In this document: in pieces, positions 11,301-58,470 of the stretch
How positions within the stretch are numbered: position 1 is the stretch's first letter
Layout of the letters: every line of letters starts with the position of its first letter
Assembly: GCF_964355755.1 (NCBI RefSeq)
Contig: NC_092677.1
Span: 27,825,175-27,889,174, forward strand
From: Antedon mediterranea
Lineage: Eukaryota; Animalia; Echinodermata
DNA length: 64,000 nt
Reading direction: 5' to 3'
Program-made: the position numbers and the translations under genes
Notes under the pieces: generated by a model
Databases searched by the model: none
The model's input: the letters and a program-made list of their open reading frames with translations, nothing else
Told to the model about the DNA's origin: nothing

Positions 11301-14300
11301 GGATAACCAACTACCACCATTTTGAAAGCAAACCATATTTTCCTATGCATTTGACCAATGATTTGAATTTTTGGTTAATATTTGACAAGTGAATTGCCGA
11401 GTGAATTGCTTGGTAAATAAACCTTTTCTAAGGAAATTAAATTGAACTAACTGAAGTAGTACAAACAGATAAAAATAACAAATGGTGAGGGTAGGTTTAC
11501 TATTCGCTATTTTAATGAAAAACCAAATTAAACTGTTGGCTGACTGAAACATCTTTATTAACAGTTTACAACGAAACTGGACAGAACAATTACAAAAAAT
11601 CCATCAGTTATTTTTTTGAATACCAAAATGGAAAACGAATTCCAGATTTGAAAGAAATCATCATAATAATTATTTTTTAGTCACGTGTATTTATTTTACA
11701 ACAACAATCAGTTGTAGTTTTCCAAAAAAAAAGATTTAATTAGCAACATTCCGTAAATATAATTTCTGCTACACACTAATAATCAGCATAGAAAGTGTCA
11801 ATGCCTCAATTGGATCTGTACAAGAAAACATTTGTTATGCAGTTGTTAATTTATAGCCTTGGGTCTAGATTTTGGATTGTATTATTATTGGCTTATTAAG
11901 AGTTGAAGCGTACTGGATGAAACCGAACGTTGAAACGTATCAGTACCTGTTTGTGTCATCAGTCAAAAAAGACAGACAATGTGGAGGAATCTACTGTAGA
12001 AAAGCACAGTTAAACCACATTTTGCGTCACGTCAAAAGCTACATTCTCACGTCTTGTTCCATTTTGCTTTTATCATCAGTCATTAAATACACTTCATGGA
12101 TTTGAATGAATATGAATATGTATTTACCGAAACAAAGTTACTTATAGAATTGAATTTAATTGTAGTATTACCATTTAAAGCTTATGCCTTTGATAATCTA
12201 AGCTTATGCCTTTGATAATCTTGGATCAGCCCCTAAAAAGAAATATACGCGACGAAGTTTAGGCCTTTGATAATCCTATATTTTGGATCATTCCCCTAAG
12301 AAATATACGCGATGACGACACGAATACAGAATAAATGCTTCGTAATTGTCATCCAAGTAAAGTTTAATGAAGGGCCGAGAATGTTTTAAGTGGTGGTTAA
12401 TTTTAAGTGGTGACATATATTATAAACACTTGTATGGACTGTTCAAAGGGTACTCGGTGAAACAATATACAACGGCAAAATTCATCATTGTCGCACGTTT
12501 GTACTTTACACCAATTGGTAAATATGCTAAGAAGGCATTTATCACTGAATACTGACTTTGGAAACAAAAACCGACTGTACCAACAGAATACCGACTGTAG
12601 AAACAGAATACCGACTGTAGAAACAGAATACCGAGTGTAGAAACAGAATACCGAGTGTAGAAACTGAATACCGACTGTAGAAACTGAATACCGACTGTAG
12701 AAACAGAATACCGACTGTAGAAACTGAATACCGACTGTAGAAACTGAATACCGACTGTAGAAACTGAATACCGACTGTAGAAACTGAATACCGACTGTAG
12801 AAACTGAATACCGACTGTAGAAACTGAATACCGACTGTAGAAACAGAATACCGACTGTAGAAACAGAATACCAATTGTAGAAACAGAATACCGACTGTAG
12901 AAACAGAATATCGACTGTAGAAACTGAATATCGACTGTAGAAACAGAATACCGACTGTAGAAACAGAATACCGACTGTAGAAACAGAATACTGACTGTAG
13001 AAACAGAATACCGACTGTAGAAACTGAATACCGACTGTAGAAACAGAATACCGACTGTAGAAACAGAATACCGACTGGATAAACAGAATACCGATTGTAG
13101 AAACAGAAACCGACTGTAGAAACAGAATACCGACCGTAGAAACAGAAACCGACTGTAGAAACAGAATACCGACTGTAGAAACAGAATACCGACTGGATAA
13201 AACAGAATACCGACTGGATAAAACAGAATACCGACTGTAGAAACAGAATACCGACTGGATAAAACAGAATACAGACTGTAGAAACAGAAACCGACTGTAG
13301 AAACAGAATACCAACTGGATAAACAGAATACCGACTTTGGAAACAGAAATCGAATGTAGCAACAACATAAATATTTATTTTTATTTTTGATCTTATTTAA
13401 AAAAAATTGTTTCCTTCTCAGCCAGTCAGAAAAGCTTCCAAGATCAAGTAAAAACTGAAAAAATAAAATAATTTCATTTCATTAATATTATTGCCAATAT
13501 TTATTACCAATGCCAGAATTGCGAAGTAAAAAAACCAATTATAACATTTCGAGATTAAAATCGGACAATAAAATAATATATCAATAATCAATCAATATGT
13601 TTTTTTTCTCTCCTCAGGCAGTACTGTAATCCTATTTCTCTTTCTTTACTCAGGTAGTGTCCGTTTATAATCCCCATTCTCTTTAATTTGGTTAACAGAG
13701 TCAGAAGGTTAAATCTTAAAGAACAATTATGACAGACTGATGAAAACAAAATATTTTATTTTTTCAACAAAATAATTTCCCTTCAATCAAAGTAACATTT
13801 ATTTCTCTTGTCTTTCATAGAAAATAAAATTAACAGTAAAAATTATTAAAATAAGAGGGGCAACATTCCTAAAAAGCAAAGCTTGTATAAGGCAGCCCAT
13901 AGAAAATGAAAAAAAAAAAACAGGACAACACGGGAACCGGAAACAGGACAAAAACAGTAATGAAGACTTTTAGATTCAGGGTACCGAAAAGACTAAAAAT
14001 ATCAAAACTACAATGAGTGAAAGGATAATTAAACATAACTAGATAAGAGGTGCCGTTTCAATTTAAAAGAAAAACTCTTCTTAGACAAAGCACTTTTTAT
14101 ATTAACTGGTACGTTATCCCAAAGTTTAGGACCAGTGAACTTAATGCTATGTTTAAAAGAAGTAGTTTTAAAAAAAGGAATACGTATTTGATTTGCGCTC
14201 CGAGTACTGTGGTTATGAAAATTAAGATTGAAACTAAATAAATCATCAAAGTGTGATGGCAGGATCGAGTTTAGCCATGAATAAAGGAAAACACTTTGTT

Positions 14301-21080: not shown

Positions 21081-24000
21081 TTAGGAAATCTGGTCGTTCA
21101 TTACATGTTTTTTCTTAAATGTAATCACCACAGCAACCAACATTCCAAGAAACATGGTTATTGATACGGCTAGAATAACTCGATCTGTGCCGATCCCAGA
21201 TGAACTATGTATTCCGTCTCTCAAGCTTAAATCTACCATCGATACATCTAGTAAAAACGGATTTTATCAAAGTTATACGTTTAGACCACAATTAAAATCA
21301 GAACTATTAGGCCTATGTTTCACTTTTTCTTCTTAAATTAATTACATATATTTTTTATCTGGAAGACCAAACTTAAAACCTTGATTTAATGTGTCCTCAC
21401 ACAATTATATTTAATAATTTATCAAATGTTCTGTATATTTTATTATATGATATTGTTTGAAACAAACTTGAACTTGGATATTAATCGCTGCTTAGTCCAT
21501 TGTCGTCAATATCATCACGTCTTATATTTTGTCACTATTGCATTGCACGCACAATTTCGCCTATATTGTCATACTTTTAAAGTTATCATCACTATCATAT
21601 AAAACAACTTTACCACATGCTATCCTCATTAAGAATAGTTATCTTGTTTTAATTTAAAATAGCAAATTGTTACTTACCGTTAATTTCTCTTTTCTTTTTC
21701 CTACCTACAATAATTAAAGAACAACAATAAATATGTTTGATTAATTAATTATAACATATTGCGCATACAATTGACATAGATTAAGATTTTTTTTTTTCTC
21801 TCTTTTGCTATGGATATAATATTATGTCACCATGATATTCCGAAATAAAAAGATGAATGAAATGAATGAAATGAAAATAATATCAATGAATAGAACTTTG
21901 TATGGGAGAAAGTGTTAAATTAAAGTTGCACTTACCAACTACATTAGAACAAGTGGTGCCTGCATACGGTGATGTACATTGACACTCAAAGGAAGTTGTA
22001 AACGAGCTGCAAAAGCCGCCATTTTCACATGGATTACTGCTACATGGATCTGAAGCTGTAATGGTTATGTTTTAAAAGACTCTTGAAACCGAATTCAATC
22101 AATTTACATACATATATATTTTCAGTGGCATATGATGACGGGCGCATGCTAATATTATTTTCATCGACGTTTAAACGCGCGCGTGTCAAGTATGTTGACG
22201 CCATGGTGACAATGTGATGACAAAAACGGTATATTGCACATCAAACGATATTAGGCCTAATAATAGATATGAGATTGATATGATTAATAGATTAATGTAA
22301 TTAAAAAAGATTTTTTTTTCTCTGGTTGCTGCGTACCACAAAAATATATATTATATTTATACATAAACTACATTGAATATTTATAATATATAACATTTTC
22401 ATTAATATGGTTTTATCTATTTTACTATACAAACATAATTGTATTATGTTATTTTTCCATAACTATTTTATAGTACATATGAATAAATAATTGTTTAAAT
22501 TAATTTTGTGATATTTCTTCTTATGCAGATATATTTATATTGTTATAAAGACTTACTAGTGTCAGCACAATGTTTTCCAATAAAACCAGCGGGACAGTCA
22601 CAAAAGAAGTAGACGTTGATATCCAGATCTGTCTGATAGACATTGTAACAAACGCCCCCATTGTCACACACACGCACGCTACACACGTCACCAATAGGAT
22701 CATTCTCTAAAATTAAAGAACGTTCAAATGATATCAATATTCATGATTATTATTTAAATAAATTATTTTTTTCTTCTTCAACAATTTTAATTTTAGAAAG
22801 ATATCAACTAATCCACTGGACTTGTTTAGTAAATAGCTAGCTACGTGGATTATTTTGATATTTTTATACAATTAATACTACCTGGATGAATGAGAATATT
22901 CATATTCTTCTTAAAAAATATGTTTCGGATAAAAATTGTATCAGACTTTAACACTTTGACTGCCAAACACGAAGATCTTCGTTTTTGGAAACACAACGTT
23001 TGACTGCCAAACACGAAGATCTTCGTTTTTCGCGTTTTTTTACGAAATCCGGTAGATAGGTTAATTATTGGTATATACTATAAATATGAACACTATATTC
23101 GGTCTGGACCGTCAATATTTTACAATTTGAAAGTAACTAATCTGGTTACGAACGATTGTCAAAATGGTACCTGTCGAAATAACAAACACCGCGCATCACA
23201 GTAGCGCGTAGAGCGATGGCTTGGCGCATTGTGTATCGGTCGCGCGCTAGCTATGCCGCCGAAGCATTACAAAGGTTTTGTGGATTGACATGTTTGTTTG
23301 TTATCTGAATAAAAAATAATGGAGTCATTTTCAATATGAAGTCTTTAATTTTATTATTGTATGTATACCCTAATTGTTTTGGTGTTTTACTGAAAGTGAC
23401 CGAGTTTCACGAAACAAACTTGTTTTGAAATGGTATGGATATTATCATCAGTTTACTATCTAGGCTAGGCTAGTAGTACTAGGCTAGCCTAGGCCTAGGC
23501 CTAGTCGTAAAACGGTTCCGGACCAACTTTAGGCCTGGTTAACTAGGCCTGGTGTCTTTACTATGTGGATTTTGGCGAAACATTGATATAAGATTTATGA
23601 TTTATAAAATGTAATACATTTTTCGATAGTGATAACTTATTTTTATAGGCCTATCGGTGCCGTGTAAGTAACTTTTTCGTTGTTTGTTGATCTCACCGGG
23701 CGATATTTTCATATTGTAATGTCTTGCACAAAATCGCGAATATCTCGACTTTCTTGCGCGAAACTACGAAAAACTCAAAAAGTGGGTTACTTTCATTTTA
23801 CTATTACGATTTACATATTGTGATTTAAAAATCGTTCTTGATACCATTGTAAAGCTAAAATCTTTATGATTATTTTAGTCTAAATTAAATATAAATCAGA
23901 TCACATAAATGGTTTCAATCAGCTTTAATATAAACATCGAATTGGGCTAAAAACGCTGGCGGTGGCAGTTTCTAACTTGAAAAACCTCTGGCAGTCAAAG

Positions 24001-27000
24001 TGTTAACGGTAGTAACGTGTCCATTGCCACTACTGTAGAAGGCCTAATTCCATATAACGAATTGTTGTCGCATAATGAGCAAAATTCAAATTTGTTTTTA
24101 CTATGAATCGAAATATTATGGAATGGTAAATTAATAGCATCTTTTTAAATATTGACTTATTTCATGATATAATAATATTGTGATCGGACTATTGAATGAA
24201 TATTTATGAGGTCATTATCAAGATCAATTAAAAGATTCTAAGAATGCGCGCCAAAATAATCCGTTGGTGGTAGAACAGACGATATTCATCAATCAACAGT
24301 GTGTTGTATGGCGCGCCAAGCTGTCATTTATTCGGAAATAAAGATATCTTAGTTGCGATATCTCTATTGCTTGAATAAATGACAGCTTGGCGCGCCATAG
24401 TGTTGTGTCAATTTTAAAGCGACTTGTTGTTGTATGCATACAAGGTATTCAGTCAAGAACACACTGATGTTGCCAACGCAATGTTCAATTTAAAATAGAT
24501 CAAATGTTACACAAGTCTAGACATAATTGCCTCAAGCCTTAGTTTTAGTTGTCTTTTGTAGGCCTACTGTGTGTACTCTTTGATTTTGATTGATTATGAC
24601 ACACTATGTGTGCCAAAATACCGGGCAAAATACTAAGCAGATTCGCTGTTTAGAACATATAACTTTTAGTCTTCTAATAAATTCAGGATTGATATTTTTC
24701 GATTTAATTTCTTCAATATTTATTCTTTTCATTTCTTTTGAATCGAACGATGTAACAAAATATAGTTGAAAAATTATTAGAGGCAAAAGCCCTATAATTT
24801 AGACGCATTAACAAGATGTTCGTAGCGCACGCGGATCGAGTTTCTTATTTCTGTAAAATCATGTAAGAACACACGGGAATAAGCATATTATAATTAAGTT
24901 CTACTGACTATGGACCAACAAAGTTCATGTACTAATTTTACTGTAAAGCTTTGTCTACACTATCAAACTTTATGTGACACAAAAATGTGATGTGCCCATA
25001 TAAAGGAAAGTCTTTAAACAGTGATTGGGTTCGCTTGTGACAATCCTGGCTTTTTGTTTCATTATATATTTTTCTGTTGTAATTGTAATGAGCCGATATT
25101 GAATAAATCAAAATCAAATATATGGACATGATGATGTCATATCACTATCATAATTGGTCATATCACTACCATATTTGGGGATATCACTACTATATATGGT
25201 CAGATCACATTGTGTCAAACTAGATTGATAATGTACAGCTTTATGGAGCTTTTGTAGTGTATACGTACGTGTTGTCGACGCACAGTTGACTCCAGTGAAA
25301 CCGGGAGGGCATATACAAGCGTACTGCATCTGGTAGAACCCTGAGTTACCCATACTACTCAGGTAGCTGTTACGACAAGTGGATTCGTTCTCGCATGGAT
25401 CACTAGAACAAGCATTAGTCTCAGGGGATAACTCTAAAAGAAATAAAATATACGAGGTCTTCACGAGTGATCTAATAACCCCAGACATCATAACGCTACC
25501 CCAAAAAACTACCCTTTACCACTATAACCTGTCGTACTTTCTCAAGAGCTTGTTGTTTTCGTACAAAGTTACAACAAATTCTAGACACCTTTTTTCACGC
25601 TTAATACAGACTTTCACTTATGGCTAAAAAAATAGAAAACGTGTAAACAACTACTATTCGGTGATGAACATGCTGGACATTTGTTTTGCTTACCATCACT
25701 TGCACAGTGTTTTTCTGTGTACCCTGGAGCACACAAACACACATAATGACCATCTTCCAGTGTCATGCAGGACCCTCCATTCATGCATGGGTCACTCAGG
25801 CAACTGTCGCTGTTTACGATTGTCGCTGGAGAGAAATTATTAATAATATCTAAATAAATTACTAAAATTATCATTAGTATTTCAATCATGACATAGTATA
25901 CGTATACGTCATCCGATGACTCACTATTCTGACGTACTTATACTGTACGTCAGAATTACACCAGCGGCGGAATCATTCAGGACTTGGTACGTTTAGACTA
26001 GAGTTACGTCGGATGGGGACATTATGGTAATTACGTCAACCGAGAACTACCTATCCTTACGCATTATGACGTCAACATAGAACTCCCTATTTTAACCTAG
26101 TACTGTTACGCACTATGACGTCAACATAGAACTCCCTATTTTTACGTTGTACTGTTATGCACTATGACGTCAACATAGAACTCCCTATCTTAACGTAGTA
26201 TTGTTTTGGACTATGACGTCAACATAGAACTCCCTATCTTAACGTAGTACTGTTACGCACTGTGACGTGAACATAGAACTCCCTATCTTAACGTAGTACT
26301 GTTATGAACTATGACGTCAACATAGAACTCTCTATCTTAACGTAGTACTGTTATGGACTATGACGTCAACATAGAACTCCCTATCTTAACGTAGTACTGT
26401 TACGCACTGTGACGTCAACATAGAACTCCCTATCTTAACGTAGTACTGTTATGCACTATGACGTCAACATAGAACTCCCTATCTTAACGTAGTACGGTTA
26501 GGGACTATGACGTCAACATAGAACTCCCTATCTTAACGTAGTACTGTTACGCAGTACGAAATTAGAGGACTCACTATACTTTGACGTTCGTTAGCGGAGG
26601 ACTCATTATCATAATGTAGAAAAAAAAACCGTCTTACATTGTTCACAGTTTGTTCCAGTGAATCCAAATTGACAAACACATGAATACAGATTAGTTCCGC
26701 ACGGGCCATTATTTTGGCATTCTCCTTGATTTTTACACGGATTTGTATCACATGGTGACAGTTTACCTTTAACAAATATATATATATATATATCTTTTAA
26801 ACATATTCTTAGTGGCATATCTAGAAAGCAAATGGTATATTATAACCAGATCCATGCGGGGATCGTGGTTTCTATTCTTAACGAATTACGGGTTTTTTTG
26901 GACGAAAAGTAAAACGTTTAATTATTCACACTTTATCGTTAAAATCTCTCCCTAACATGAACAACATTTAAAATTCATGATTTAGAATTACCTAAAGATT

Positions 27001-30000
27001 CAATTTTAAGGTAGCCATGATTTGAGTAGAGACAGGTAATACAACAAATAAACAACGAACATAACGTAACATAAACGAAAGGTTTGATTTCAATTGTGAT
27101 ACAAGATATTTTAAGGCAGTTTTCCTATTTATCAAATGCCTCAAATGCGTTATTTTAACTCGAAAGTTCAGTGGAATCATTCATAATTGGGATACTATTG
27201 TCAAAACATCGTTAAGGAAGTACAAACGATGTATAATTATTTACATAAACACTTACGTAGTTCACATCGTGTTCCCTCATAACAATCCTGGCACTCGCAT
27301 TCAAATGTCGTGCAATCAGTTTTGATGCATGTGCCATCGTTGCCACAAGGATTACTAGAGCACGGGTTAGGGAACGCTGAAGCGTAAAAAAGGTAGGATA
27401 ATTAGACGATAAAAGTTCATTCAAGAGGTAGCAAAATAAATTAAAAATAAATAAAAACTAAATAAACAGATACAATAATAATAAAAGAAAATAAATAAAA
27501 AAAATAAGTAAAAAATAAATGAACAAATAAAAAAAAAATAAATAAAAAAAATACATAAAAAAGAAATAAACTATAGGAACCATCAATTCAAAAATTATAT
27601 ACAGATAATTGTTAGATGCCCAATAAAATTCTTCCCGTTGTTATGACGTTTACCATACGTGCGCGCAACGCACGAAATGTAACCAATCACAATTGATGAA
27701 CATTATAGCTTTCTCGTGTGATTGGTCACATTAATTCGTACGTTGCGCGTAGCCTAGAGTGGGAAAATGTATTTTTTTTGGCATTTGCATCTGTCATCTT
27801 TTCAAAAACAAATCCAGCTTACCCATTTCGTCACAAAATTGTCCATGAAAGCACGGAGGGCATGTACAGTTATATCGATAGCATGTGGAGAGGTCTGACA
27901 TGTCTGGTTGACACGTGGCACCATTTACACACAAATGATCACCAGTACTGCATGGATGAATTTCTGAGGGAAACGATAAACAGCTAATATAAATAATAAT
28001 AAATAAAATAATAACAGGATTTTTATAGCGCACATACCACTCAAGAGTGCTCAAGGCGCATTAAAAAAAATAAAACAAATCATACAAATGCCCGACAAAT
28101 AAAATGCAATTTCTTTGGAGGGTCCCCATCCGTTCTCGTTCTGTCGCGGTCCCGGACCCCTACCTAGGTGACCAAACAAAGGAACAGGATACACATTTGC
28201 CTTGCCACAGACGACCGGGTGCTCAGAGACAACAACCAAGACAGAGGCACCCCAAAGATAATGCTGGTTAGGAAAAAGTATACTATACAATTCTAGAACT
28301 TTAAGAAACCTCATGATTTCCATATGCCTTAATGAATAAATGTGTTTTTAATAATTTTTTAAAAGTATCAACAGTTTTGCAAAATCTGATAGAGCTCGGT
28401 AGAGCATTCCATAGACGAGGAGCAGTAACGGTGAAAGCTCTGTCTCCCCATGAGTGGTGAGACTTAGGTTGATGTAGAAGCAGCGTATCACTAGAACGCA
28501 GATTCCGTCTGGGAACATACAGCCAAAGCATGTCAGAAATATATTCAGGAGCCATGCCATTAATAGACTTAAAAACAAAGAGTAATATTTTAAAAACAAT
28601 GCGGTACCTAACAGGAAGCCAATGCAAAGTTTCCAAGGTATTTGATATGTGTGCATATCTTGGTAGTTTTTTAACAACTCGTGCCGCTGTATTTTGAATC
28701 AGCTGAAGCCTGTGGAGTTGTTTTTGTGGTAGCCCATATAGCAATGAGTTTCCCATATCCAGTCGTGAAGTGACAAAAGCATGAACAAGTTGTTTAGCTG
28801 CTGCCTCATTAATAAACTTTCGAATCCTTCGGATGTTTCGTAAGTGAAAAGACGACGTAGAAATAGTTTTTGAGATATGAGAAATCATAGTCATACCTGC
28901 ATCCATTTCAACCCCTAGATTTCTATCCTGCCTAGCCGGGTCTATTTGGGTTTCACCAATGTAAATAAAACTTGGTGGCAGTTTTTCCAACTGCAGCTTT
29001 GATCCAAAGAGAATATATTATATGGTGCTCGTAAAAATTGTGTGTAGGCCTAGAATGACCGATTTATTTATCGAGCATAAAAAGTTACTGGACGTTCTTT
29101 GGAGATTTCAACATTTGAACTTTTTTGCCAAAACTATTTTGTAGTATTCGATTCGAAGTCTTTTTGCTGTTTAGTGGTTGGTATACGTTGTTTCACTTCC
29201 TTTTCCGATCCCTGAAAAAGTTCCGATCCCTGAAACAGTTCCTATTTATTGCTACCATTTAACTAAATGTAAATGTAAATTGGTTTTTTTTTTCATTTTT
29301 CCTGGACTGTCTCAAATAAATGTTAATGTTAATTTTAAAAAAACTGTTGAGCTCATCAGAAAATTCTTTTGCTTTTTGTGGTTTTATCGCACAATTTAGT
29401 TTCTTTGAAAATTTTCTAAAAATAGTATAACTTACTAGTCTCGCATAGATGACCTGTGACACACATAGGGCATTTGCATTCATAGGCGGCGCAATTACTT
29501 TGAGCACGCACACACGTTCCACCATTTTTACATGGATCATTTTGACATCCGATGTTGAAGTCTGTACAAAAATAAAAACAACAAATAAGTCACAGATTGA
29601 ATCACGTCATCACACTTTGTTGTTTTTTTTCCTTTAAATGTTGTTATATTCATCTTATGTGTTTGTTTCTATCGATATTGATTTTTTTTGATTGATTGAG
29701 TATTCTTTATTTTTCACACAAAATTCAAAATATATATCAAAAGAAGAACAGATGCAAAGTGTGAAAAACATGATATCTACAAGCAAGCAAAGTTGTTGAT
29801 CTGTGGCACCCTTAACTTAAAATATAAATTTACATATACATTACAAAATTGTTTTCAAGTAGTAGATTATAAAAATCATATTAGTAGATATAAAATCACA
29901 AAATAGCCGGTAGCCTACCTGTTTCACAGAATTGTCCTGAGTAGCAGGGCGGACAAGTACATGTGTAGTCTGTACAAGAGTTATTTCCTGCGACACATGT

Positions 30001-33000
30001 GGCTCCGTTCAGACATAAATTAGCGGAACATTTACCAATTTCTAAAAGTTTTCAGATGAAAAACAAAATTGGAAAAACTTTTGAAAAAAATCCTTGAAAT
30101 CAGCAGCTGACATAAACTACTTAAAACATTCGGCGTTTTCCGAAATATAAAAAAAATAATTATTAAATCAAAGTCGAAATTACTTGATTACTCGAATATC
30201 TTATTTTTAAAAGTAGACATTATTCTTGAGTAAAACCGTTCTGCTCAACGGTTCGCTTCCAGTTAGGCTACTTGTAGTGAATTAGCGTGTACACTCATCA
30301 CAGATGGATCCTGCCATCAAGGCAGACTAACGTCCTTCCATCAAGGCAGACTAACGTCCTGCCATCAAGGCAGACTAACGTCCTGCCATCAAGGCAGACC
30401 AGGATCCTGCCATTAAGCCAGACTAACGTCCTGCTATTAAGGCAGACTAACGTCCTGCCATCAAGGCAGACTAACGTCCTGCCATCAAGGCAGACTAACG
30501 TCCTGCCATCAAGGCAGACCAGGATCCTGCCATCAAGGCAGACTAACGTCCTGCCATCAAGGCAGACCAGGATCCTGCCATCAAGGCAGACTAACGTTCT
30601 GCCATCAAGGCAGACCAGGATCCTGCCATCAAGGCAGACTAACGTTCTGCCATCAAGGCAGACCAGGATCCTGCCATCAAGGCAGACCAGGATCCTGCCA
30701 TCAAGGCAGACCAGGATCCTGCCATCAAGGCAGACTAACGTTCTGCCATCAAGGCAGACCAGGATCCTGCCATCAAGGCAGACCAGGATCCTGCCATCAA
30801 GGCAGACCATAATACTTGATGACTTCTTACCGGTTTGACAGAGTTGTCCAGTGAAACATCCAGTACATGAGCAACTGAAACTGCACGAGCCATTTTCGTA
30901 TTCACAAGAAGCACCATTCAAACACTCAATACCTTGACACGGACTTATATCTGTTGATAACATTACACTTATTATGATTCAATTCATTTCATTCACATTT
31001 ATTTAGTCATCGTTTTATATTATTATATTATATTGATTACCGCAGAAACTCTTATCCGATGGCAGCCAGCCACACACTACCCTTTCAACCAGTTAGTACA
31101 CTACAGCTATCCATACGAGATGATTTTACGTCACATTAAACGAAGCCTGGACAACTGAGACACTTACTGTAGTAGGTTGTCTTTTACGTTGTCAATTATA
31201 CAATACAATCTATTATTTTTTTAAACCAACCAACAGCAAAAAGAAATTGGCCAATAACAGAAGGGTATTACTGGCTTAAATATAGCAATACTTGCCACAC
31301 ACACAACCTCATTACTTACACGTCTGGCATTGAGTTTCAGCATAGCAAGGTGGGCAGGTGCACGATGGGACGTCACATGGTGTCAGTCCAGGTACGCATG
31401 TGCCTCCGTTTTTACAGCTATCCACGTTACAATCAGATTGGGCTGAAACGACAATAAATAATGGATTCAGTATTTATTCTTCCAGTTCGTTTTTGATATT
31501 TTCAATATAATGTAACCTTGCCCACTACCACTACCAGGCTGTAGAGTTTTATGTAACTTTGTCATTACAGAAGGAGAGAGGTTCCATCATGTGGACTAAC
31601 ATTACAGTGTAGTGTGATAAAACAATCTGAACACAATGTAGACTGTTAAAACATAGCATAATAGGATACTACTTTACCTATCTCGCATAGTGATCCACTG
31701 TAGCAAGATTCACATAAGCAAACATACTGATTACATGTTCCTTCAACTGGTTGACATGTCCCACCATTTTGACATTCATGGTTGTCACATCCTGTTACCA
31801 CTTTAAAGAATGTAAAGGAGTTAAGCTTGGGTTCTCACTAGAAAAAACGCAACGAAACGTAACCGACGCAACGTAATAAAATACTCTTTAAAAAAAATCA
31901 ATTTCGCATAACTTTTTGCGACGTACACAAAGCAGCAGACAATGGTGTTCGGTTCCCAATTTTGACGCGTAACGTTACGTTTTTACGGCACTATGCGTCG
32001 ATACGTTGCGTCTACGTTCTTGCTTCCTAGTGGGAACCAAGCTTAAAGATAAACTAGAATGTATGCATAACCATTCTCTACATTAAACTTTCGTTATACT
32101 TTACTTGCATCATAAAGATAATAATTTAATATTTCCAATCATAAAGTTGGTATATTAAATGATGCTGCAATGATCTTGATTTTGATTAAACATAATTCAG
32201 AATTTAAAGATCATTAAGCGAGGAATATCTAATCCCCACTTACAACTTACATGTTTCACAATATCGTCCAGTATTGCAAGCTGGACATGCACATGTGTAA
32301 ATGGAACAGGAGGCAGGAGTTGAAGTCTGCATACGGATACAAACTCCACCATTTTGGCACTGATGCGTTTGGCATGGGTCAGCAATAGCTGTTACAAACA
32401 ATATTTTAGATATCATTAATTCAATTGATAGTTTAGTCAAAAGTCATTGGTCAAGAGAAGTCTTTTCACACACCAAAGTATCCGTTTGAGTTTCTACACG
32501 AAGTGTACGTTATTGCATAAGGTATAATAAACATAACATTCAAAATCAATGTTTGGCAACACCACTATTTTGATGATTATAATGCCAATATTTGATCAAA
32601 GTGTCTTCTTAACCTCGTGGTCAACCTCAACTGTTTTCAAAGTGCTTCAACCCCCTTCAGCTGGTTAAAGTTTAAGGGAAGTTACCACAATCATTAAAAT
32701 ATATTGCCGCCTAGGCCTACCTATTTCACAACTTGACCCTTCATAGCATCCGTTACATTGGCAGAGGTACGATTGGCAGTTATCAGCTGTCAAACACAAG
32801 CCGCCATTCTGGCAAGGTGAAGATTGGCAAGGGTCTGTATCTGAAATCAAATAAATACACGGTGTATCTTTACAATCAAACTATAGCAAACATTCTGTAG
32901 GTTGAATGTGAGTTGAATGCTATCTAACAATCTTTGTTTCCAGTGCGAATTTTGTTTTTCAATCTGTACAGGCATTGCCACGAATATCAGAATCTTGCGT

Positions 33001-36000
33001 AATTGATGTACAGTAGTGGTACTTCCAACCGCCAGTCTCTCTGTCAAAATTCATACAGTAAGAATTTATGCATTGCATATCACACACGCACACACAAACA
33101 AAAAGATCCTTCGATAGTATACTGATGGTATGATTGTGGATTATTTACTTACAATTTTCACATTTTTCACCAGTGTAACAGCCCGTACAATCGCATGCAT
33201 AATCTTGACAAGTTCCAACAAGATTGGTACAAACTCCTCCATTCATACATTCATGATTTGCACATGGATCGACCACTTCATTCAAAATATAATAACAAAT
33301 CGCCCGAAACGATTGGTCATTGATTAAAAATAAAAGTTATGAAAGTATCAACTTAACTACAAATTTAAGTTTTTACTGAACGCAAAGAAAAGTTTTAACT
33401 CATTAACGTTTACAATTATAATTGATTGTGCCAAAAGATCAACAGTAACAATAATAATGGAAAATAGTTTGGTATAGGAAATTGATTTAGTAATAATTTG
33501 TTCATTTAGTCACAAATTTCACATTTTTCACCAGTGTAACAGCCAGCACAAACGCATTGATAATCTTGACAAGTTCAAACAAGATTGGTACAAACTCCTC
33601 CATTCATACATTCGTTATTCGCACATGGATCGACCACTTCATTCAAAATATAATAACAACAAATTGCCCGAAACGATTGGTTATTATTTAAAACTAAAAC
33701 TACAAAGTTACTGAATGCAAAGAAAAGTTTCAACTCAAAAATTGAAAATTATACTTGATTGGTCATAAAAGAAAAAAGTACAACTAGAATTTAATTCGTC
33801 ACTTTGACGAATTATAGGTGATCATTTTTATCATTTTAATGAAATAAATTTTTTTTAAACATGTACGTACGTTAACATACGATAGGAAAATGTTGATGTA
33901 TGCCATCCTATTATACGCTTATAGTGCTGAGTTATGCCTATTATATGCCATATACAATGTACAGTATATACTGTATATCTATATACAGTGTAGCATAGGT
34001 GAAATTATGGGACACACATCAAGTTCAAATTTTTTGGTATGATGGAATTATCAAAATAAACTCGAAGATGACAATTTCGAAAGATAATGAATTGAGCAAA
34101 TAGATATAAGGATTGGAAGAGAATTTGACACGTAGAAGCGCAATGCGCGCTCTTTGAAATTCTTATAACTTCGACTAAAGAAATTTAAAAACTACTTTTT
34201 AACTTCAACTGGCCATATGATAACATCACAACATCCGATACGCTTAATTTTTATATGAATTCATATCTACATTTCATCAGCTTTCATAATAAATTATAAT
34301 CTTCAAGGTCACCTTTAATTCTGAAGAGCTTTAAGATATTCAAATGTATGGTGTAGCTGAAATTACACGACCTAGGTTATTCAAGTTTTTACGCGTGATG
34401 AAGTAATCAAAATAAAAATGTTGACTACTCATTAGAAAGATAATTAATTGAGCAAGCACATACTAAAATTTGTGCGAAAATCGGGCTCAAATAACGGAGA
34501 TGCGCTCTATTGAATGTGATAACCCACACAAAACGATAAAAATTCCTAATTTCTAAATTCAAGTGGCCATTTGATGACGTCATACCATTTTGTACGTCTA
34601 ATGTGTATATACATTTGTATATACAACTTATTGGCTTCCATAATAAGTTAAAAAAATTGGGGGTCACCTGCCATTCTGAATAGTTATATTCATTTTAAAA
34701 AGTCCTTATTTTTTACCATTTTTAGCACTTTTGTACAATTAAAGTGCGTATTTTGTCATTTTTAACGTGCTCGTATAGCGTTATTTTAAGTCGGAATGGA
34801 CTCAAAGTCGGAGAATGTACTAAGGATTGTGAGTAGAATATGATGTATACATCAAATTTTATTTTTTACCCTTTTTAAAAATCGCGTGCGCAAAAATGTG
34901 TTTTTGCGCAGTAATTTTTTTAAACACACAAATGGCCTATTTCATGCTCTAAATTGATAAAAACTAAATTTTGAGCTTTTTAAAATTTCAACGCGCGATT
35001 TCACGTGCATGACCTTGAAACGCCCGAGTTTTTATTTGCTAATATTTTTTACCTTGACCTCAAGTTTACGTGTAGTGATTTTCATTAATATGTGATAATG
35101 AATTATGGAGATATGATTGATAATGTGATTTCACAAAATGGCGTATACGTGACGTCACGGATGAGTGATCACGCTGAAAAGCTTATTAGGACTAAGTTAA
35201 CGTATTTGAAAGACATTGTGAAATTTTGGTAATCATTAACATTAAACTTTTTGAGATATTTGTTACACAAAATCTGTACAGAGAGAAATAAATAATAAGA
35301 ATAAGAATAAAGATTTCATACAATAACAATAGGTGATCATTTTATTCTAAATGATCACCTAATAATAATGGAAACTTTTGTATAGGAAGTTCATTTAGTA
35401 ATAATTTGTTCATTTACTCACAAATTTCACATTTGTCACCAGTGTAACAGTCAGGACAAACGCATTGATAATCTTGACAAGTTCCAGCTAGATTAAGATT
35501 GGTAGGCGTACAAACTCCTTCATTCATACATGTATGATTTACACATGGATCGACCACTAAGTTAAAACATAATTAATAAGTACATACATTTTCCCAAAAT
35601 GTTATATAATTATTATTATTACGAATAAAAAGTTCGATTTTGACTGAACGCAAATAAAAATTTCAACTCAGTAAAATCAAAGACTGTGCCAAACTATCTC
35701 GCTTTAACAGCAATACTTTAAAAATGCATTATATAATGGAGAAAGCATTCGTATCTGAAATTGATTTAGTAATAATTTGTTTATTTACTTACACATTTCA
35801 CATTTGTCACCAGTGTAACAGTCAGGACAAACGCATTGATAATCTTGACAAGTTCCAGCTAGATTAAGATTGGTAGGCGTACAAACTCCTTCATTCATAC
35901 ATGTATGATTTACACATGGATCGACCACTAAGTTAAAACATAATTAATAAGTACATACATTTTCCCAAAATGTTATATAATTATTATTATTACGAATAAA

Positions 36001-39000
36001 AAGTTCGATTTTGACTGAACGCAAATAAAAATTTCAACTCAGTAAAATCAAAGACTGTGCCAAACTATCTCGCTTTAACAGCAATACTTTAAAAATGCAT
36101 TATATAATGGAGAAAGCATTCGTATCTGAAATTGATTTAGTAATAATTTGTTTATTTACTTACACATTTCACATTTTTCACCAGTGTAACAGCCCTGACA
36201 ATCGCATTCATAATCTTGACAAGTTCCAACTAGATTGGTACAAACTCCGTCATTCTTACAAGCATGATTTAAACATGGATCGACCACTAGTAGTAGAAAA
36301 ATAACCAACTTATTACTGACATATTTATGCTAGTAACAGCAGCATGTACTACTGTCAGGTCCAGGGAACAAATACTGAAAAATCTAGTTTTTTCGGATCG
36401 GAGTTTTTCATCAGAAAAAGCAGCTAAAAATATAAAATTCAGGTGTACATACCGTCTTCACAAAATGTTCCTTCGTAGCATTCAAGACATAAGCATTTGA
36501 ACTCGGTACAACTATTCTCCGTGATTAAACACGTACCACCATTTAGGCATTCATTTCTTTCACATGGAGTTGGTATGGCTAATCAGAAATACATTTAATT
36601 CATTCACGACTTCAAATAAATTAATTAATTGCCTTTAATGAATTATTCACTCACAAGTTTACGACATTTAATAATAAAAAATGTTTTTTGCTTAATGAAG
36701 TTTTCGGTTTACTCATGAAAAAGCAAGATTCCTTCTCTAAAAGTGGCAGATGTTTGTATAATTACAAATTCAATTTTGATTTTGCTATAAAAAGAAGTAA
36801 ATTGATGAGTTTCAACCATTATCAAGCTCATAGCCAGTGCTGGTGTGTTTAATAAACTCCTTTTTCTTTAGTTCTATTTTGAAACTAGAGAGGAAAGTGA
36901 TGAAAATAGCCTTAACATAATGGCGATGTCTGCGGAAAGTGTTTTGTTTAAAAAAGTGCCATTTGTGGAAAAGGTGTCTTTTTGTGGAAAAGTGCCATTT
37001 AGGGTAAAAATTGCCATTTAGGGTAAAAAGTGCCTTTTGTGAACAAAATCCCCTGTACAAATACTATACTATGCTACGGGATTGACCATGTATACTTACG
37101 TAGTTCGCACTTAATTCCAAGGAAGCAGGGAGGACAAGTACATAAATATTCTGTACAAGATCCAGTCATTGGTGTACATACGCCACCATTCATACATGCT
37201 TGGTCTATGCATGGACTAACAACTGCAATAGTAAATATTAAACTAATTTCTAACTAACTGTATCATTAAATTAAGTGAAAAAAGATTTGTTATACTGTAT
37301 ATTCAAAACAAGATTGATGTTCTTCCATTTACAAAAAATTATTATTATTGGAAATTTTGTTCACCGTAGTTCTTCTCTCAATTTATGGGATTATTTTTTG
37401 CTGGTTGTTACTTTCCCATAGTCAATTGTTTCAGAGATTGTGGATCTTGGGTGAAGATAAAGTGGTACGAATTGCATACATGCTCCAACTTAATTTTAAT
37501 CATTAATATTTTTTTTACTTTAATGAAATAAATGCATACACTGTTCACAATTTGGTCCTGTATAACATGGGGTACAACTGCAGGTATAACGGTTACAGAG
37601 GATAGGATCATCAAAACACTGTCCGCCATTTTGACACAACATACCAGAAGTTGAACAAATAGATGTAATAACTGTAAGAAATAACAACATTATTTTCTTC
37701 ATTCAGGCATTTTATAAAAAGCTATTGTAAATATTCACAAAATCATATATATGTTAGAAGGCTTAAGTGTTTTACAGAACGCGTCACTGTCAGGCACGAC
37801 TATTTTTGTTTGTTGAAATATTGTTTTACCAATAAAATTTGAAATACACTACAATATACGTACTTGTGGCACAGTATTGACCGGTGGAACATTCAGGACA
37901 GACACAGGTATAGCCAGAGCAATCGGAAGCAGGTACGCATGCGCCACCATTTTGACACAGATGACCGTCACATGGGTCAAACTCTGAAAATAATCTAAAT
38001 ATGTATTTGTTTGTATTCTCTTGAAATGTTTATGTTTTATCTGGCGGAACTAGCCTTAAAGCATTCTGGGCTTATTTACGTTTCTTCAGCCTATGTGCAT
38101 TCTACTTTTTTAAACTTTATTTTTGTTATTATATATTATGATGTATCATGAGAATAAAATAAAATTGAAGTATTTTGGAATAGTTGTATACGTAAATGTT
38201 GAAGAATGCTAGTAGTAGTACATCGAGATTTACCTATTTCACAGTTGCTCCCTGTATAGCATGCTGGACAAACACAAGTTGAACTCGAACATGTGCCAGG
38301 AAGAGTTTGGCATATACCTCCATTCACACAGCCAGTATTTGCGCAAACAGCAGGAGCTGTAATTCAAAATGAAAACCAACTTATGTGTGAAACAACACGT
38401 AAAATGTTTGTTTGTTTGTTTGTTTTATCTTTATACTGGGTGACCTCTTCAGTCAAAGACTGATCTCCCAGAGGGCCCAGTTGGTGATGTACTAGTACAC
38501 CGGGGTAACCCCCTACTCGTCTCGAAAGATGTACTAGGTTCTTTAAAGTGCACACGAGCAAGTTGTGTACACTGGACCTACGGTTTATAGTCCTTATCCG
38601 AGAAGACTCGTTCTACCACCAGAACCATGGAGTGAGTGAGCCTCGAACCCCTGCCGATGTTATGGCTACGTGATTACGGTTCCACTGTCTTAACCGCTCG
38701 GCCACTCACTCACTACATAAAAAAAATAAACATATAAAAATTAATTTAGTTTATAGCGGTAATTTTAACTATAAAATGTTTAAAAAAATTGCGTACGTAA
38801 TTCACAGAAATCGCCTTGATAACAACCTGAACAGATACAAGTTGCCACCGAGCACGTAACGTCATGGTAACACTGTCCACCATTTTGACACGGAGATGAG
38901 CTACAAGCCGGAGCTTTAAATATAATAAGTAAAACGTGTGACGACACAAGACGTTTGGGCGCATGTATGTTTGAATACGCGCCAGTATACGCGCGTCAAT

Positions 39001-42000
39001 TAATGATAGCGTATTGTACTTACGAGTGGCACAGAATTGACCAGTGAAACAATTTGGACAGACACATGTATATCCAGAACAATCTGAATCAGGTACGCAT
39101 GCGCCGCCATTTTGACACTGATGGTTTTCACATGGTGGTATCATCTCTGAAATCAATTGATTCGTTTATATGTTATTTTTTTTTTTCATTTATGACAAAA
39201 AATACTTTCACAGAGACCTGGGCCGAATTGCATACACTTGTGACCATATAACTTAATATTTATATACCAATAGGCCTACTATATAATGAATATGAATATA
39301 ACAAATAATATTTTAAAATAAAATTTCACAATATCATCCATTGTAACAAACAGGAAACTGACAGATACTACTGAAAATAATTGAAATGAGGTGTGCGGCA
39401 GGGTGAGATTACTAACCTATTTCACATCGAGATCCAGAAACACACGATGAAGTACATGAACAAATGAAACTATTAGACTGAGCCACACAAACACCATCAC
39501 TGGAACAAGGATTTGATTCACATGGATCCACAACTAAAATAATAAATATGTAATGGTAAAACATAAATATGGAAACAATTCAGTGTCCGTTCAATCACAA
39601 CGGTTCAAAATAATAAAATCAGGTACCATAAAACCTCGAAAGAAGCCCTCTGGCCCCACCTATTTATTTTTCCCCCTAAAGATGCCCATCTTTAAAGATT
39701 TAAGCCCCTCTCTTTAGTTTACAAAATCGAGAACAGAAGCGCCACCAAGTTATGGTCTTTTTTATTTATTTATTTATTTATTTATTCGACTTCTCACTAA
39801 CACAGTTAGTGAAGGATCTGGACCAACTCTAAAACGGTCCAGTCCCAATTTGCAGTGGCTGTGTGTGACAGTGGCTGTGTTTGTGTGAACTAGTACACCG
39901 GGGTAGCCCCCTACTCGTCTCGAAAGATGTACTAGGTTCTTTAAAGTGCGCATGAGCTACGTGTACACTGGACCTACGGTTTATAGTCCTTATCCAAGAA
40001 GACTCGTTCTACCACCAGAACCATGGAGCGAGTGAGCCTCGAACCCTTGCCGATGTTATGGCTACGTAATTACGGTTCCACTGTCTTAACCGCTCGGCCA
40101 CTCACTCTTTAAAGTTGTTACGGTATTAAGCTTATAGCACGTAAACAAACGGGCATTATATTTTAAATATGCATTTACTTTACAGGTGTGTGTGCAATCT
40201 AGGTATTTCGCGCGTAGACTGTGATAATCGTGTCCTATTTTACGCATGTATCTTGTGGTATGCTTAATATTTTGACTAATTCAATTGAATATTTATAATG
40301 TCCACTACTATGTTTACCCATGTAGAATAATTCTGTGATAATAGATATGAAATACAATACATTGGAACTCACCGAGTTGACATTGTGGACCGTTGAAACC
40401 AGAGGGACAAGCACAGAGATAATGGTTACCAGAAGGTGTGCACACGCCACCATTTAGACACGGGTTGTCCGTGCAACCTGAAAGATAATTCAATTCATAT
40501 AAATTGTTATTCTCTTGGTTGTTAAGACGTCCGGTGACCAGTGCAAAAACTTAGAACCTACTAAAATGTAGAATTCAGATTTAGTAGCCTACAGTCCCAT
40601 ACATGCGGTCTCTGTCTCCGCACATTGTTGTTGTATACTTCTTAAACTGCTGCTGAGCTCGCTCTATGCTTAATTTTCCACTGCAAATACTGTTATTACG
40701 TACGTCATAAGGTTATTCAAAGCGAAACTTTACGAATGGTTGCATGCAATGATAGGAGTGCTGTGGACAATTACCAGACAAGCACAACATTTCAATCTGT
40801 TTCAATGTGGAAATACAAACAAATCGCTCGGTTTATTTATCAGAAAGAAAGTTTTTGAACGATTATGTATTGTAAATATAGTTTGCAATTCAGCCAGACA
40901 GCAGTGTTTTATTTTCTTTGTAATTTTGCTTGTTTCAATAAAAAAATCCATTATATATTGTCTTTAGTGATAAAAGTGAAAATTAATGAATATAGTAATT
41001 GTTTTCCGATTTTCTTCCAAGCGGCTTTCTAAATGTAGGCCTAATTATCTATCTCACTGCAGTACTTCTACGACTTTTATCAAACCCGGACGCCGCACCC
41101 GCGGACGCAACGCAACGACGTCGTTCGTAAGCACAACGCAAGTAATTTGACAAATCACAAGCGATGGATACAAACTGTCGTTTGTCATTAGTCAATTCGC
41201 TTCTTGCGTTGTGGGCTTACGTTATTGCGTTGTGTCACGGATGTAGGCCTACGCTAAACGAAAGTAATTTGATAACGTCATAATCTGTTGCTTGTGATTG
41301 GACAAAGTACTTGCGTTCCGTTCAATGGTAAACTTTCACAACTTATATTTAGGTTTACTCAAATACCAGATTTCAACTCATCCTTAAAAATCAATTGATA
41401 CATTCGTGTCTATTCATGGTGGTATTTTGTCAGCGATAAATAACTGTTTATTGTGAAAATATAAATCAGAAACGATATAGATATATAATAAATACATTTT
41501 CTATAAAGAAATATTGTCAACATTATAAGTAAAGATTGATTCTCACTAGAGACGCAACGCAAGCGAATTGACAAGCGACTGTTGTTAGAATAATCCATTG
41601 CTTGTGATTTGTCAAATCACTTTGCGTTACGTCCTTGCGTTGCGTTTCTCGTGAAAACCAAGCTTAATAAAAGCTAATAATACATTTAAGTTTATATAAA
41701 ATAACAAAATATTGATACTGGCTGACCTGGTGGACATTCAAACATTATATCGCCAACTTGACAAAGGCAAATATACGACGAATCACTGGAAATTGAACAT
41801 ATTCCATTGGTGTTACATGGAGAACTTGCACACGGTGAAACAGATGCTGTAAAATAAATAAAATAATTAAAATAGACAATAAAACATTTACAGATGTGTC
41901 TAGTTGCTTGTCGTCTCACTAGGACACAATGCAGCAAGGGTGTAGCGCAACGTAAGTGAGTTGACCAATCACAAGTGATGGATTATTCGTGCTGTCGCTT

Positions 42001-42276
42001 GTCATTTGTCAACACGCTTGCGCTGCGTTTACGTCTTTGCGTTACGTCTTAGTGGCAACCAAGCTTAAGAGTCGGCGCGTAAAACGTTGTGATAATCTGT
42101 CTGTTTTACGCGCGCATGCATGTTTGTTATCTTAATGTTTTGATCAATACAAAACAATACATGCATCCAAAGTCAAGTTACATTGCGTAGATTTTTGAAT
42201 AAAGATTATTCTTACCTTGACCAATAACGACATCAACAATCGCAAGAAAGACAACTACAGAAATTGACGACATCAT
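21081..42276 (-). CDS. Type I membrane multi-EGF protein: signal peptide, 29 EGF exons (one with a stop), basic cleavage motif, TM helix, 11-aa tail
   Basis: Signal exon 42216-42276 ([20 protein letters not shown]). Phase 1-1 EGF exons: 41727-41846, 40373-40477, 39417-39533, 39024-39146, 38797-38913, 38234-38356, 37864-37983, 37540-37671, 37100-37222, 36453-36578, 36164-36286, 35793-35927, 35422-35556, 33514-33636 (internal TGA), 33153-33275, 32721-32840, 32251-32388, 31678-31800, 31320-31442, 30831-30950, 29919-30041, 29436-29561, 27823-27963, 27257-27376, 26638-26766, 25694-25825, 25269-25433, 22557-22706, 21936-22055. Then 21678-21704 (GRKKKREIN) and 21081-21247 ([32 protein letters not shown]). 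All internal exons are GT-AG with lengths divisible by 3. Confidence 0.9.
22952..24002. mobile_element. Non-autonomous piggyBac-like DNA transposon
   Basis: TTAA on both flanks (22948-22951, 24003-24006); 14-bp TIR CACTTTGACTGCCA / TGGCAGTCAAAGTG; a 32-bp left subterminal direct repeat; no transposase ORF. Confidence 0.85.
24307..24399. mobile_element. 93-bp near-perfect palindrome (mini-MITE or hairpin element)
   Basis: tatggcgcgccaagctgtcatttattc ... gaataaatgacagcttggcgcgccata gives perfect 27-bp arms, with further inner pairing; gtgttgt is repeated on both flanks. Confidence 0.75.
24945..25242. mobile_element. MITE family A copy, degenerate and interrupted
   Basis: Ends aaagctttgtctacactatcaaact and attgataatgtacagcttt; internal catgatgatgtcatatcacta motif shared with the copies at 50855, 51367 and 56974. 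Confidence 0.7.
26063..26552. repeat. Minisatellite, 49-bp unit, 10 copies, 9 containing TGACGTCA
   Basis: Unit ACTATGACGTCAACATAGAACTCCCTATCTTAACGTAGTACTGTTA(T/C)GC repeated in tandem in an EGF-gene intron. Confidence 0.95.
27985..29012 (-). mobile_element. 5'-truncated L2-clade LINE in an EGF-gene intron
   Basis: ORF 28301-28990 has L2 ORF2 C-terminal motifs ([36 protein letters not shown]). The 3' end reads gcgccttgagcac...gtgcgctataaaaatc followed by (TTA)n. Confidence 0.9.
30304..30808. repeat. Minisatellite, 24-bp unit with two interspersed variants, about 21 copies
   Basis: CCTGCCATCAAGGCAGAC followed by TAACGT or CAGGAT; each unit holds the inverted repeat CTGCC-ATCAA-GGCAG. Confidence 0.96.
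31821..32046. mobile_element. MITE family B
   Basis: Ends ttaagcttgggttctcactag and ctagtgggaaccaagcttaa; related degenerate copies at about 41535-41668 and 41910-42068. Confidence 0.72.
33514..33636 (-). pseudogene. Disabled duplicate EGF exon (pseudo-exon)
   Basis: In-frame TGA at 33575-33577 where sister exons have GGA (Gly); donor GTGACT versus GTGAGT or GTAAGT in sister exons. Confidence 0.75.
33783..35363 (-). mobile_element. Non-autonomous Helentron/HINE-like rolling-circle element, copy 1
   Basis: On the minus strand: 5' subterminal IR TAGGTGATCATTT with an adjacent inverted copy, a microsatellite-like tract, 3' AAAATGATCACCTA, stem-loop AATTCGTCA-AAG-TGACGAATT and terminal CTAG. 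No TSD. A second copy lies at 43724-45126. Confidence 0.78.
35424..36165. repeat. Essentially identical 371-bp tandem duplication of one EGF exon plus intron
   Basis: 35424-35794 matches 35795-36165 through both exon and intron by eye. Confidence 0.92.
38405..38714 (-). mobile_element. Full-length tRNA-derived SINE with Deu/Nin-like central domain
   Basis: Minus strand: A box TGGCCGAGCGG, B box GGTTCGAGGC, core GGATAAGGACTATAAACCGTAGGTCC...TTAAAGAACC...GAGTAGGGGGTTACCCCGGTGT, which resembles the DeuSINE/AmnSINE conserved domain as recalled; (CAAA)n tail. Confidence 0.82.
39762..40107 (-). mobile_element. Same SINE head and core with a different 3' tail
   Basis: 39890-40107 is near-identical to 38492-38710; 39762-39860 is unrelated to the other copies' tail and ends in (TAAA)n. 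Confidence 0.82.
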
Positions 42277-58159: not shown

Positions 58160-58470
58160 GATCTAGAAAAAATACAATATTTGATGATTATGAATATTAT
58201 CAACCAATCAACTTTATTTCATCCTTCATGAGGCAATTGAAAAGGGTTACATCAGTGTACCAAATGTTAATAGAACAAATTATGTTATATCATTTATCAA
58301 GTTGATTTATACGTCATTTATTATCATAAAAAAACTTTTAAAATGTTAAAACTATAATAACAATGATGATAATAAAATACTATAAAAATAACAGCAACTG
58401 ATGATATAACGAAAAATTATTCATTTGAATGAGAAATATAAATTTGATGAAAATACTGACAATATTGAAA

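Follow-up and report, generated by a model that had tools for sequence, protein, structure and literature searches.

An EGF array in an Antedon mediterranea gene whose extra cysteines point to disulfide bonds between neighbouring modules

The 64,000-nucleotide stretch of the Antedon mediterranea genome analysed here (NCBI RefSeq assembly GCF_964355755.1, contig NC_092677.1, positions 27,825,175 to 27,889,174; hereafter the window) carries on its minus strand a gene for a long tandem array of EGF modules, most of which contain two cysteines in addition to the canonical six (C1 to C6). One extra cysteine lies in the C3-C4 hairpin and the other in the C5-C6 loop, six residues before C6 (C6-6; positions are given as offsets from the canonical cysteines). 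The distribution of these residues along the window gene and its homologs makes it likely that the loop cysteine of module n is disulfide-bonded to the hairpin cysteine of module n+1. The three internal bonds and the usual EGF fold would likely be retained in each module, and a fourth disulfide would join 22 consecutive modules (3 to 25 without 14) head to tail, fixing covalently the aromatic-on-hairpin contact that is otherwise made by packing. The signature appears to mark a conserved, apparently undescribed four-disulfide EGF variant.

The array consists of 29 EGF exons with a regular cysteine pattern

A six-frame scan combined with a splice-site search yielded 29 EGF exons on the minus strand from 41846 to 21936, all of phase 1-1 and with AG/GT ends. 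According to their translations, modules 1-2 and 26-29 have six cysteines, modules 3 and 25 have seven and modules 4-24 have eight, and none of the 29 exons contributes a cysteine through a junction codon. The exon coordinates, module numbering and cysteine counts of a first-pass annotation, made by a model from the sequence, were reproduced by this analysis. We refer to modules with an extra cysteine only in the C5-C6 loop as L, only in the C3-C4 hairpin as H, and in both as B. While the first-pass annotation counted 21 B modules and placed the loop cysteine three residues after C5, eight cysteines are indeed present in modules 4-24 but only 20 of these are intact, module 14 having an in-frame stop, and module 3 carries its loop cysteine at C5+4 rather than C5+3, the constant offset in the window being C6-6. 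The hairpin cysteine is found at C4-5 in 19 of the 20 intact B modules, at C4-4 in module 20 and at C4-7 in module 25, which has a glycine at C6-6.

In an alignment of 19 modules, from which modules 13 and 14 were excluded, eight cysteine columns are invariant (C4, C9, C15, C22, C27, C29, C32 and C38 in alignment numbering) despite a median exon identity of 52%, which argues against a chance pattern. The 28 intact modules total 210 cysteines, an even number. No window module has a linker cysteine between C6 and the next C1; the exons stop 2-4 residues past C6, and the next cysteine is C1 of the following module. The window modules show the six-cysteine frame with C4-x-C5 and an 8-residue C5-C6 loop of the hEGF type, and at E up to 1 PF00008 is hit by 15 of 19 B modules, in most cases under its cut-off. 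The exons of the gene model are as follows.

42216..42276, minus: first coding exon with a phase 1 donor, encoding a predicted 20-aa signal peptide
41727..41846, minus: EGF module 1, 6 Cys
40373..40477, minus: EGF module 2, 6 Cys
39417..39533, minus: module 3, L type, 7 Cys (loop Cys at C5+4, C6-6)
39024..39146, minus: module 4, B type, 8 Cys
38797..38913, minus: module 5, B type
38234..38356, minus: module 6, B type
37864..37983, minus: module 7, B type, 80% nucleotide identity with module 4
37540..37671, minus: module 8, B type
37100..37222, minus: module 9, B type
36453..36578, minus: module 10, B type
36164..36286, minus: module 11, B type, member of the recent duplicate family 11-15
35793..35927, minus: module 12, B type, within a 371-bp tandem duplication (doubled contig depth)
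35422..35556, minus: module 13, B type, 99% identity with module 12
33514..33636, minus: module 14, 8 Cys, in-frame TGA at 33577-33575, weak donor, likely skipped pseudo-exon
33153..33275, minus: module 15, B type
32721..32840, minus: module 16, B type
32251..32388, minus: module 17, B type
31678..31800, minus: module 18, B type
31320..31442, minus: module 19, B type
30831..30950, minus: module 20, B type, hairpin Cys at C4-4
29919..30041, minus: module 21, B type
29436..29561, minus: module 22, B type
27823..27963, minus: module 23, B type
27257..27376, minus: module 24, B type
26638..26766, minus: module 25, H type, 7 Cys (hairpin Cys at C4-7, Gly at C6-6)
25694..25825, minus: module 26, 6 Cys, opening a series of four plain EGFs that is also found after H in echinoderm homologs
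25269..25433, minus: module 27, 6 Cys, long hairpin, best matches the corresponding module of P0302 and P0143
22557..22706, minus: module 28, 6 Cys, best matches P0236 and P0307
21936..22055, minus: module 29, 6 Cys
21678..21704, minus: 27-nt exon encoding RKKKREIN, furin-type basic site
21081..21247, minus: last coding exon with a short stalk, predicted transmembrane helix, 11-residue tail and TAA

Motifs that we take to be the O-fucose and O-glucose consensus occur in 10 and 8 of modules 1-29, respectively.

Extra cysteines follow a fixed order in homologs

Four homolog searches returned 465 proteins, 455 of which were parsed into modules after removal of ten isoform-like duplicates. The majority have plain EGFs (Notch, Crumbs, SNED1 and fibropellin-like proteins) and form the background; homolog names are automatic annotations from the source databases, and the parser overlooks some modules and assigns wrong labels in P0281 and P0391. 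The pattern was found in sea urchins (Lytechinus pictus, L. variegatus as 'hyalin isoform X45', Diadema), starfish (Patiria, Asterias), a brittle star (Amphiura), sea cucumbers (Holothuria, Apostichopus), a crinoid (Anneissia), hemichordates (Ptychodera, Glandiceps, Saccoglossus), the rotifer Seison and three further records. Twenty-eight runs contain a B module or an L-H pair, and 19 of these are complete L-Bn-H runs (14 with two to six B modules, five with none) from echinoderms, hemichordates and a rotifer. The nine incomplete runs comprise one parser error (P0281), five that stop at a sequence end or gene-model break (P0325 twice, P0369, P0373 and P0434) and three exceptions (P0158, P0279 and P0392). 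The expectation that the extra cysteine is post-C5 only in the first module of an array and hairpin only in the last is borne out by the 19 complete runs, and B never follows a plain module; the transitions plain-to-B, B-to-L, H-to-B and L-to-L do not occur at all in the 455 proteins. A hairpin-cysteine module is entered by 94 of the 96 junctions that come after a loop-cysteine module, compared to 23 of 5,739 other junctions, and six of these 23 derive from P0391, which carries a different pattern.

A fourth disulfide could also be formed inside each module by its own two extra cysteines, with modules 3 and 25 as decayed copies, and a hairpin cysteine is indeed present in 80 of the 107 parsed loop-cysteine modules. 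However, this is a weaker link than the one across the junction, and such pairing would leave two free thiols per complete array, always in the same order, as well as all extra cysteines of L-H pairs unpaired. The hairpin turn and the C5-C6 loop also lie at opposite ends of the EGF fold, as follows from the packing described in PMC4826273. We consider pairing within modules extremely unlikely. Two Seison proteins and P0295 possess L-H pairs without any eight-cysteine module, and since no such module is involved, we regard these isolated pairs as the strongest single point in favour of bonding from n to n+1.

We further compared pairing registers in the window gene and 12 representative homologs. 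Pairing with module n+1 left 6 extra cysteines unpaired, pairing in the same module 28, with n+2 36 and with n-1 46, while shuffled module order left 57.6 +/- 4.6 (minimum 38 in 20,000 trials). Hence, the n to n+1 register proposed in the first-pass annotation accommodates the cysteines better than pairing within modules.

The echinoderm cassette sits among HYR repeats and is followed by four plain EGFs resembling window modules 26-29, and the hemichordate cassette stands directly on a membrane anchor (P0301, P0332, P0393), like that of the window gene. The window gene shares the L-Bn-H plus four-EGF cassette, and the best matches of its modules 26-28 are echinoderm proteins.

Extra cysteines of both kinds fall on the EGF-EGF packing interface

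The structural premise of the proposed bond, packing of the C5-C6 loop aromatic on the hairpin of the next domain in tandem EGFs, is in print in PMC4826273. The packing histidine described there falls at C4-5 when counted on the chain sequences with the paper's six-residue linker. A hydrophobic residue occupies C4-5 in 78% of 2,287 plain junctions from an EGF to a calcium-binding EGF (cbEGF), compared to 2% at C4-4 and 6% at C4-3. Among the 94 homolog junctions that carry both cysteines, here called stapled, the loop cysteine is at C6-6 in every case, though at C5+3 to +7, and is directly followed by F, Y or W in 91. The hairpin cysteine is at C4-5 in 87 and at C4-4 in 7, though at C3+5 to +20, and the linker measures 6-7 residues in 91. 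Because the loop cysteine adjoins the aromatic residue and the hairpin cysteine mostly occupies the packing position C4-5, both extra cysteines are placed by their sequence positions on the known packing interface.

An AlphaFold2 model of the P0302 cassette, built from a 14-row alignment (predicted local distance difference test score, pLDDT, 90.4; predicted template modelling score, pTM, 0.45), has canonical strands with the hairpin cysteine in the turn and predicts the major hairpin and minor sheet of the EGF fold. Three P0302 modules superpose on Notch EGF11-13 (Z 9.9, 2.9 Å over 117 residues), in agreement with Foldseek, and cassette module 1 superposes on Notch EGF12 at 0.8 Å; the fit to the bent Notch EGF4-7 is poor (15.1 Å). 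Folding P0393 from its single sequence gave a poor result for the EGF region (mean pLDDT 44.9), the membrane helix alone being confident. Matches in the ESM Atlas were generic EGF clusters only, and the matches listed from sequence and fold searches of the PDB were all ordinary EGF proteins.

The same L-Bn-H grammar would be obeyed by an isomer in which the loop cysteine of module n bonds to C1 of module n+1 and the hairpin cysteine takes C3, which keeps the junction linked and loses the C1-C3 bond. P0279 ends with a B module and a lone cysteine seven residues past C6, at the C1 position. The EGF-like domain of alliinase (PF04863, PDB 1lk9), a single module in contrast to the tandem array here, has a C-x-C-x-x-C-aromatic loop with an outward bond to a partner past C6; we take this bond to join the cysteine three after C5 to one seven after C6. 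The fold search matches alliinase weakly (Z 3.3), as does Pfam in one of 19 modules (E 0.12). The spacing of the hairpin cysteine, however, is fixed to C4 (4-5) and variable to C3 (5-20), the model keeps C3 in the first strand with the hairpin cysteine seven residues off in the turn, and in P0393, a related protein from a hemichordate, the last module is a normal H, so that the end of P0279 may be a gene-model error. The swapped isomer is thus very improbable.

The loop cysteine of one chain might, on the other hand, cross-link the hairpin cysteine of another, giving a covalent coat or adhesive network. According to PMC13348336, surface cysteines of the EGF-like repeats of scallop Sbp9 are used in inter-domain and intermolecular exchange, and many of our homologs are HYR-rich matrix proteins. 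Cross-links between chains nevertheless give no reason for the strict order with L first and H last or for isolated L-H neighbours, and both cysteines face the interface between n and n+1, so that we judge them very improbable.

Observations at odds with bonding to the next module, and the role of calcium

Several points speak against the proposed loop-to-next-hairpin bond. The hairpin is three residues longer than that of Notch, HMMER aligns the hairpin cysteine as an insertion, and its equivalence to the packing residue is valid only when counted from C4. The hairpin cysteine of module 25 lies at C4-7, an offset absent from the 94 homolog junctions, and the loop cysteine of module 3 at C5+4. 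The pTM of the cassette model is low, and its rod match may reflect Notch structures in the AlphaFold training set. Among homologs, a terminal nine-cysteine module precedes a plain EGF in P0158, P0279 ends as described above, P0392 begins at B after a module with an extra cysteine two past C6, P0306 has an L before a plain module, and P0129 (Lamellibrachia satsuma) has two L modules (residues 997 and 1372), each before a non-EGF domain. The homologs are related and the junction counts accordingly non-independent; about eight gene contexts support the rule. Finally, the unstapled junctions of three staple-bearing proteins are also nearly devoid of the cbEGF consensus, which only 1 of 134 has.

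We scored this consensus as D/N-x-D/N-E/Q before C1 and D/N at C3+2, as given in PMC12979247. It is absent from all 94 stapled homolog junctions, compared to 2,319 of 5,741 others that have it, and no window module shows its N-terminal part, in line with the first-pass statement that the modules lack it. By this measure the array is free of calcium sites. The suggestion that the staples stand in for calcium, in contrast, is not supported by the within-protein control, and since the unstapled junctions of staple-bearing proteins are equally consensus-free, we rejected it as an established fact.

A stapled array could form a stalk extended by exon copying

If modules are bonded from loop to next hairpin, the covalent chain would give a stiff, calcium-independent stalk of roughly 60-70 nm, a further step that we regard as reasonably probable; the length estimate uses about 3 nm per EGF module. 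The rigid rod of 22-23 domains proposed in the first-pass annotation would thus comprise 22 modules at most (3 to 25 without 14). Such a stalk would keep two plain EGFs at a distance from the cell surface, and cleavage at the furin-type site may set it free. A B exon of phase 1-1 would give one cysteine to each neighbour and could be duplicated, lost or skipped without a free thiol, while the L and H ends must stay. The occurrence of 0 to 20 B modules between fixed ends would follow from B exons being self-complementary units and from the need for both ends, and the self-complementarity would likewise explain why the dead module 14 is tolerated.

We put forward more tentatively that the pattern is one instance of an unrecognised covalent locking code. 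In this proposal, which may or may not hold, the loop-to-next-hairpin disulfide would be ancient in bilaterians (single L-H locks in the rotifer, chains in echinoderms and hemichordates) and would have been polymerised by copying one symmetric exon, building calcium-free load-bearing rods of tunable length (22 modules here) that were reused as the stalk of matrix proteins, of an adhesion G-protein-coupled receptor (GPCR) and of an EGF-plus-ASC channel; the C2-C3 turn to next hairpin arrangement in P0391 may be a second geometry.

According to PMC4826273, sequence does not allow one to predict if an EGF junction without calcium will be rigid, bent or flexible, and the two-cysteine signature of a locked junction would be such a sequence rule. 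It would add a third four-disulfide EGF type beside those of integrin and laminin and account for the twentyfold exon amplification without free thiols. It could also serve as a natural model for introducing locks at selected junctions of Notch-like receptors, so as to follow the effect of stiffness on signalling, and would hint that coat and matrix proteins of echinoderms contain a mechanical element.

Comparison with known EGF types

The hEGF and cbEGF arrays of Notch, Crumbs and fibrillin (PF00008, PF12661; PDB 2vj3) are the best sequence and fold matches and share with the window array the six-cysteine core and its spacing, 6-residue linkers, the aromatic after the loop position and one exon per module. 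The window array differs in two extra cysteines per module, a hairpin that is three residues longer and the absence of the calcium consensus. While the rigidity of the Notch-type rods results from Ca2+ plus packing, as stated in PMC4826273 and PMC12979247, that of the window array would likely come from the covalent bond.

Like window B modules, the I-EGF modules of integrin beta have eight cysteines, and they form a fourth disulfide at the inter-module face, as proposed here for the window array. Their fifth cysteine lies in a very short hairpin, and its partner is just past the last cysteine of the previous module, not in its C5-C6 loop. The I-EGF disulfide pattern is 1-5, 2-4, 3-6 and 7-8, with an interdomain bond at EGF1-EGF2, according to PMC12383024. 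The junction cysteine of the 1-5 pairing has no counterpart in the window modules, whose extras are in the hairpin and the C5-C6 loop, and the I-EGF Pfam model gave no match in 19 modules at E up to 1. Laminin-type EGF (LE) modules also have eight cysteines and form tandem rods without calcium, their fourth bond closing an added C-terminal loop. The window modules, in contrast, have no extension past C6 and hence no C7-C8 loop, both extras lying within the six-cysteine frame, and Laminin_EGF did not match any of the 19 modules. The integrin stalk was neither among the 15 Pfam families matched nor among the 50 fold matches listed, integrin and laminin chains were not among the listed PDB matches, and none of the 15 families is a model for the stapled EGF type. 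Judged by cysteine position, the array would be of hEGF type and neither cbEGF, laminin-type nor integrin-type.

Echinoderm hyalin-like HYR/EGF mosaics (XP_041472953.1, XP_038068280.1) and hemichordate EGF membrane proteins (XP_077981950.1) have the same L-Bn-H cassette. They are automatically annotated and contain 2-6 B modules, often among HYR repeats, whereas the window gene has 20 and no HYR repeat by tblastn. Wouters et al. are said to have treated laminin and integrin EGFs in 2005 as having an added interdomain bond. A bioRxiv manuscript (10.64898/2026.05.07.723680) deals with an engineered bond only, and PMC10381214, in which hyalin is not mentioned, PMC13434639 and PMC3498292 proved to have no bearing on the pattern. 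Our full-text literature searches, largely outside subscription journals and outside supplements, returned no account of a chain from C5-C6 loop to next hairpin.

Predicted gene product and integrity of the locus

The gene product is predicted to be a type I membrane protein of about 1,270 aa (without module 14). It would start with a signal peptide, followed by 28 EGFs and a furin-like site, and be anchored by a predicted transmembrane helix with a mean hydropathy of 2.85 across 19 aa. We take RKKKR to belong to the furin-type motif class. Splicing of the 29-exon gene model is something we infer; the four read runs mapped, to the 5' half of the gene, are DNA, and the one presumed to be RNA covers introns and is DNA as well. 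Searching the window by tblastn with 13 homologs, seven of them of HYR type, revealed no exon for HYR, fn3, seven-transmembrane (7TM) or ASC domains, as none of 1,861 matches lies outside the 29 EGF exons.

Module 14 contains an in-frame TGA, its donor (GTGACT) is weak, and it shares 92% identity with module 15; it is likely a dead copy that is skipped in splicing. Its stop is spanned with zero differences by a DNA contig of run X2, possibly from the same sample as the window. A selenocysteine reading of the TGA was set aside, the residue aligned with it being glycine. Modules 11-15 are recent duplicates with 81-99% identity, and the 371-bp tandem repeat containing modules 12 and 13 is suggested to be real by its doubled contig depth. 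Between modules 13 and 14, at about 33700-35350, a high-copy interspersed repeat with very high depth in the DNA runs is inserted.

One might suspect a decaying or mis-assembled repeat locus whose pattern has no meaning for a protein, given the stop in module 14, the near identity of modules 12 and 13 and the predicted nature of the splicing. We find this barely credible: 28 of the 29 exons have an open frame, AG/GT ends and a common phase and are accompanied by a signal peptide and an anchor, the window is matched by DNA contigs, and the pattern is conserved across phyla.

Further observations

Several homologs show additional features. P0158 (Anneissia japonica, XP_033111997.1) has five N-terminal B modules, the last with adjacent CC, in a partial adhesion GPCR model. 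P0332 (Ptychodera flava, XP_070564509.1) runs from fn3 through L-B6-H and a membrane helix to the start of an ASC (DEG/ENaC) domain and may be a fused gene model; its EGF-plus-channel layout presumably resembles that of nematode EGAS proteins. In P0391 (JGI record), residues 62-376 form alternating EGF pairs with 4-5 residue linkers and a different set of extra cysteines, placed in the C2-C3 turn of odd modules and at C4-4 in the hairpin of even ones, possibly a second staple geometry. EGF1 of SNED1 orthologs (P0002, P0115 and others) has a hairpin cysteine and a spare cysteine seven residues before C1, which suggests that a matrix protein of vertebrates has a junction bond similar to that of integrins.

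Elsewhere in the window, an apparently intact long interspersed nuclear element occupies 5213-9587 on the plus strand, with a first open reading frame at 5213-6547 for a GDSL-like esterase with C-terminal zinc knuckles, followed by a 985-codon endonuclease/reverse transcriptase frame. Minisatellites lie at 12547-13364 (20 bp), 26057-26553 (49 bp), 30309-30807 (24 bp) and 58470-59458 (49 bp), and those of 20 and 24 bp yield long open frames that are likely spurious.

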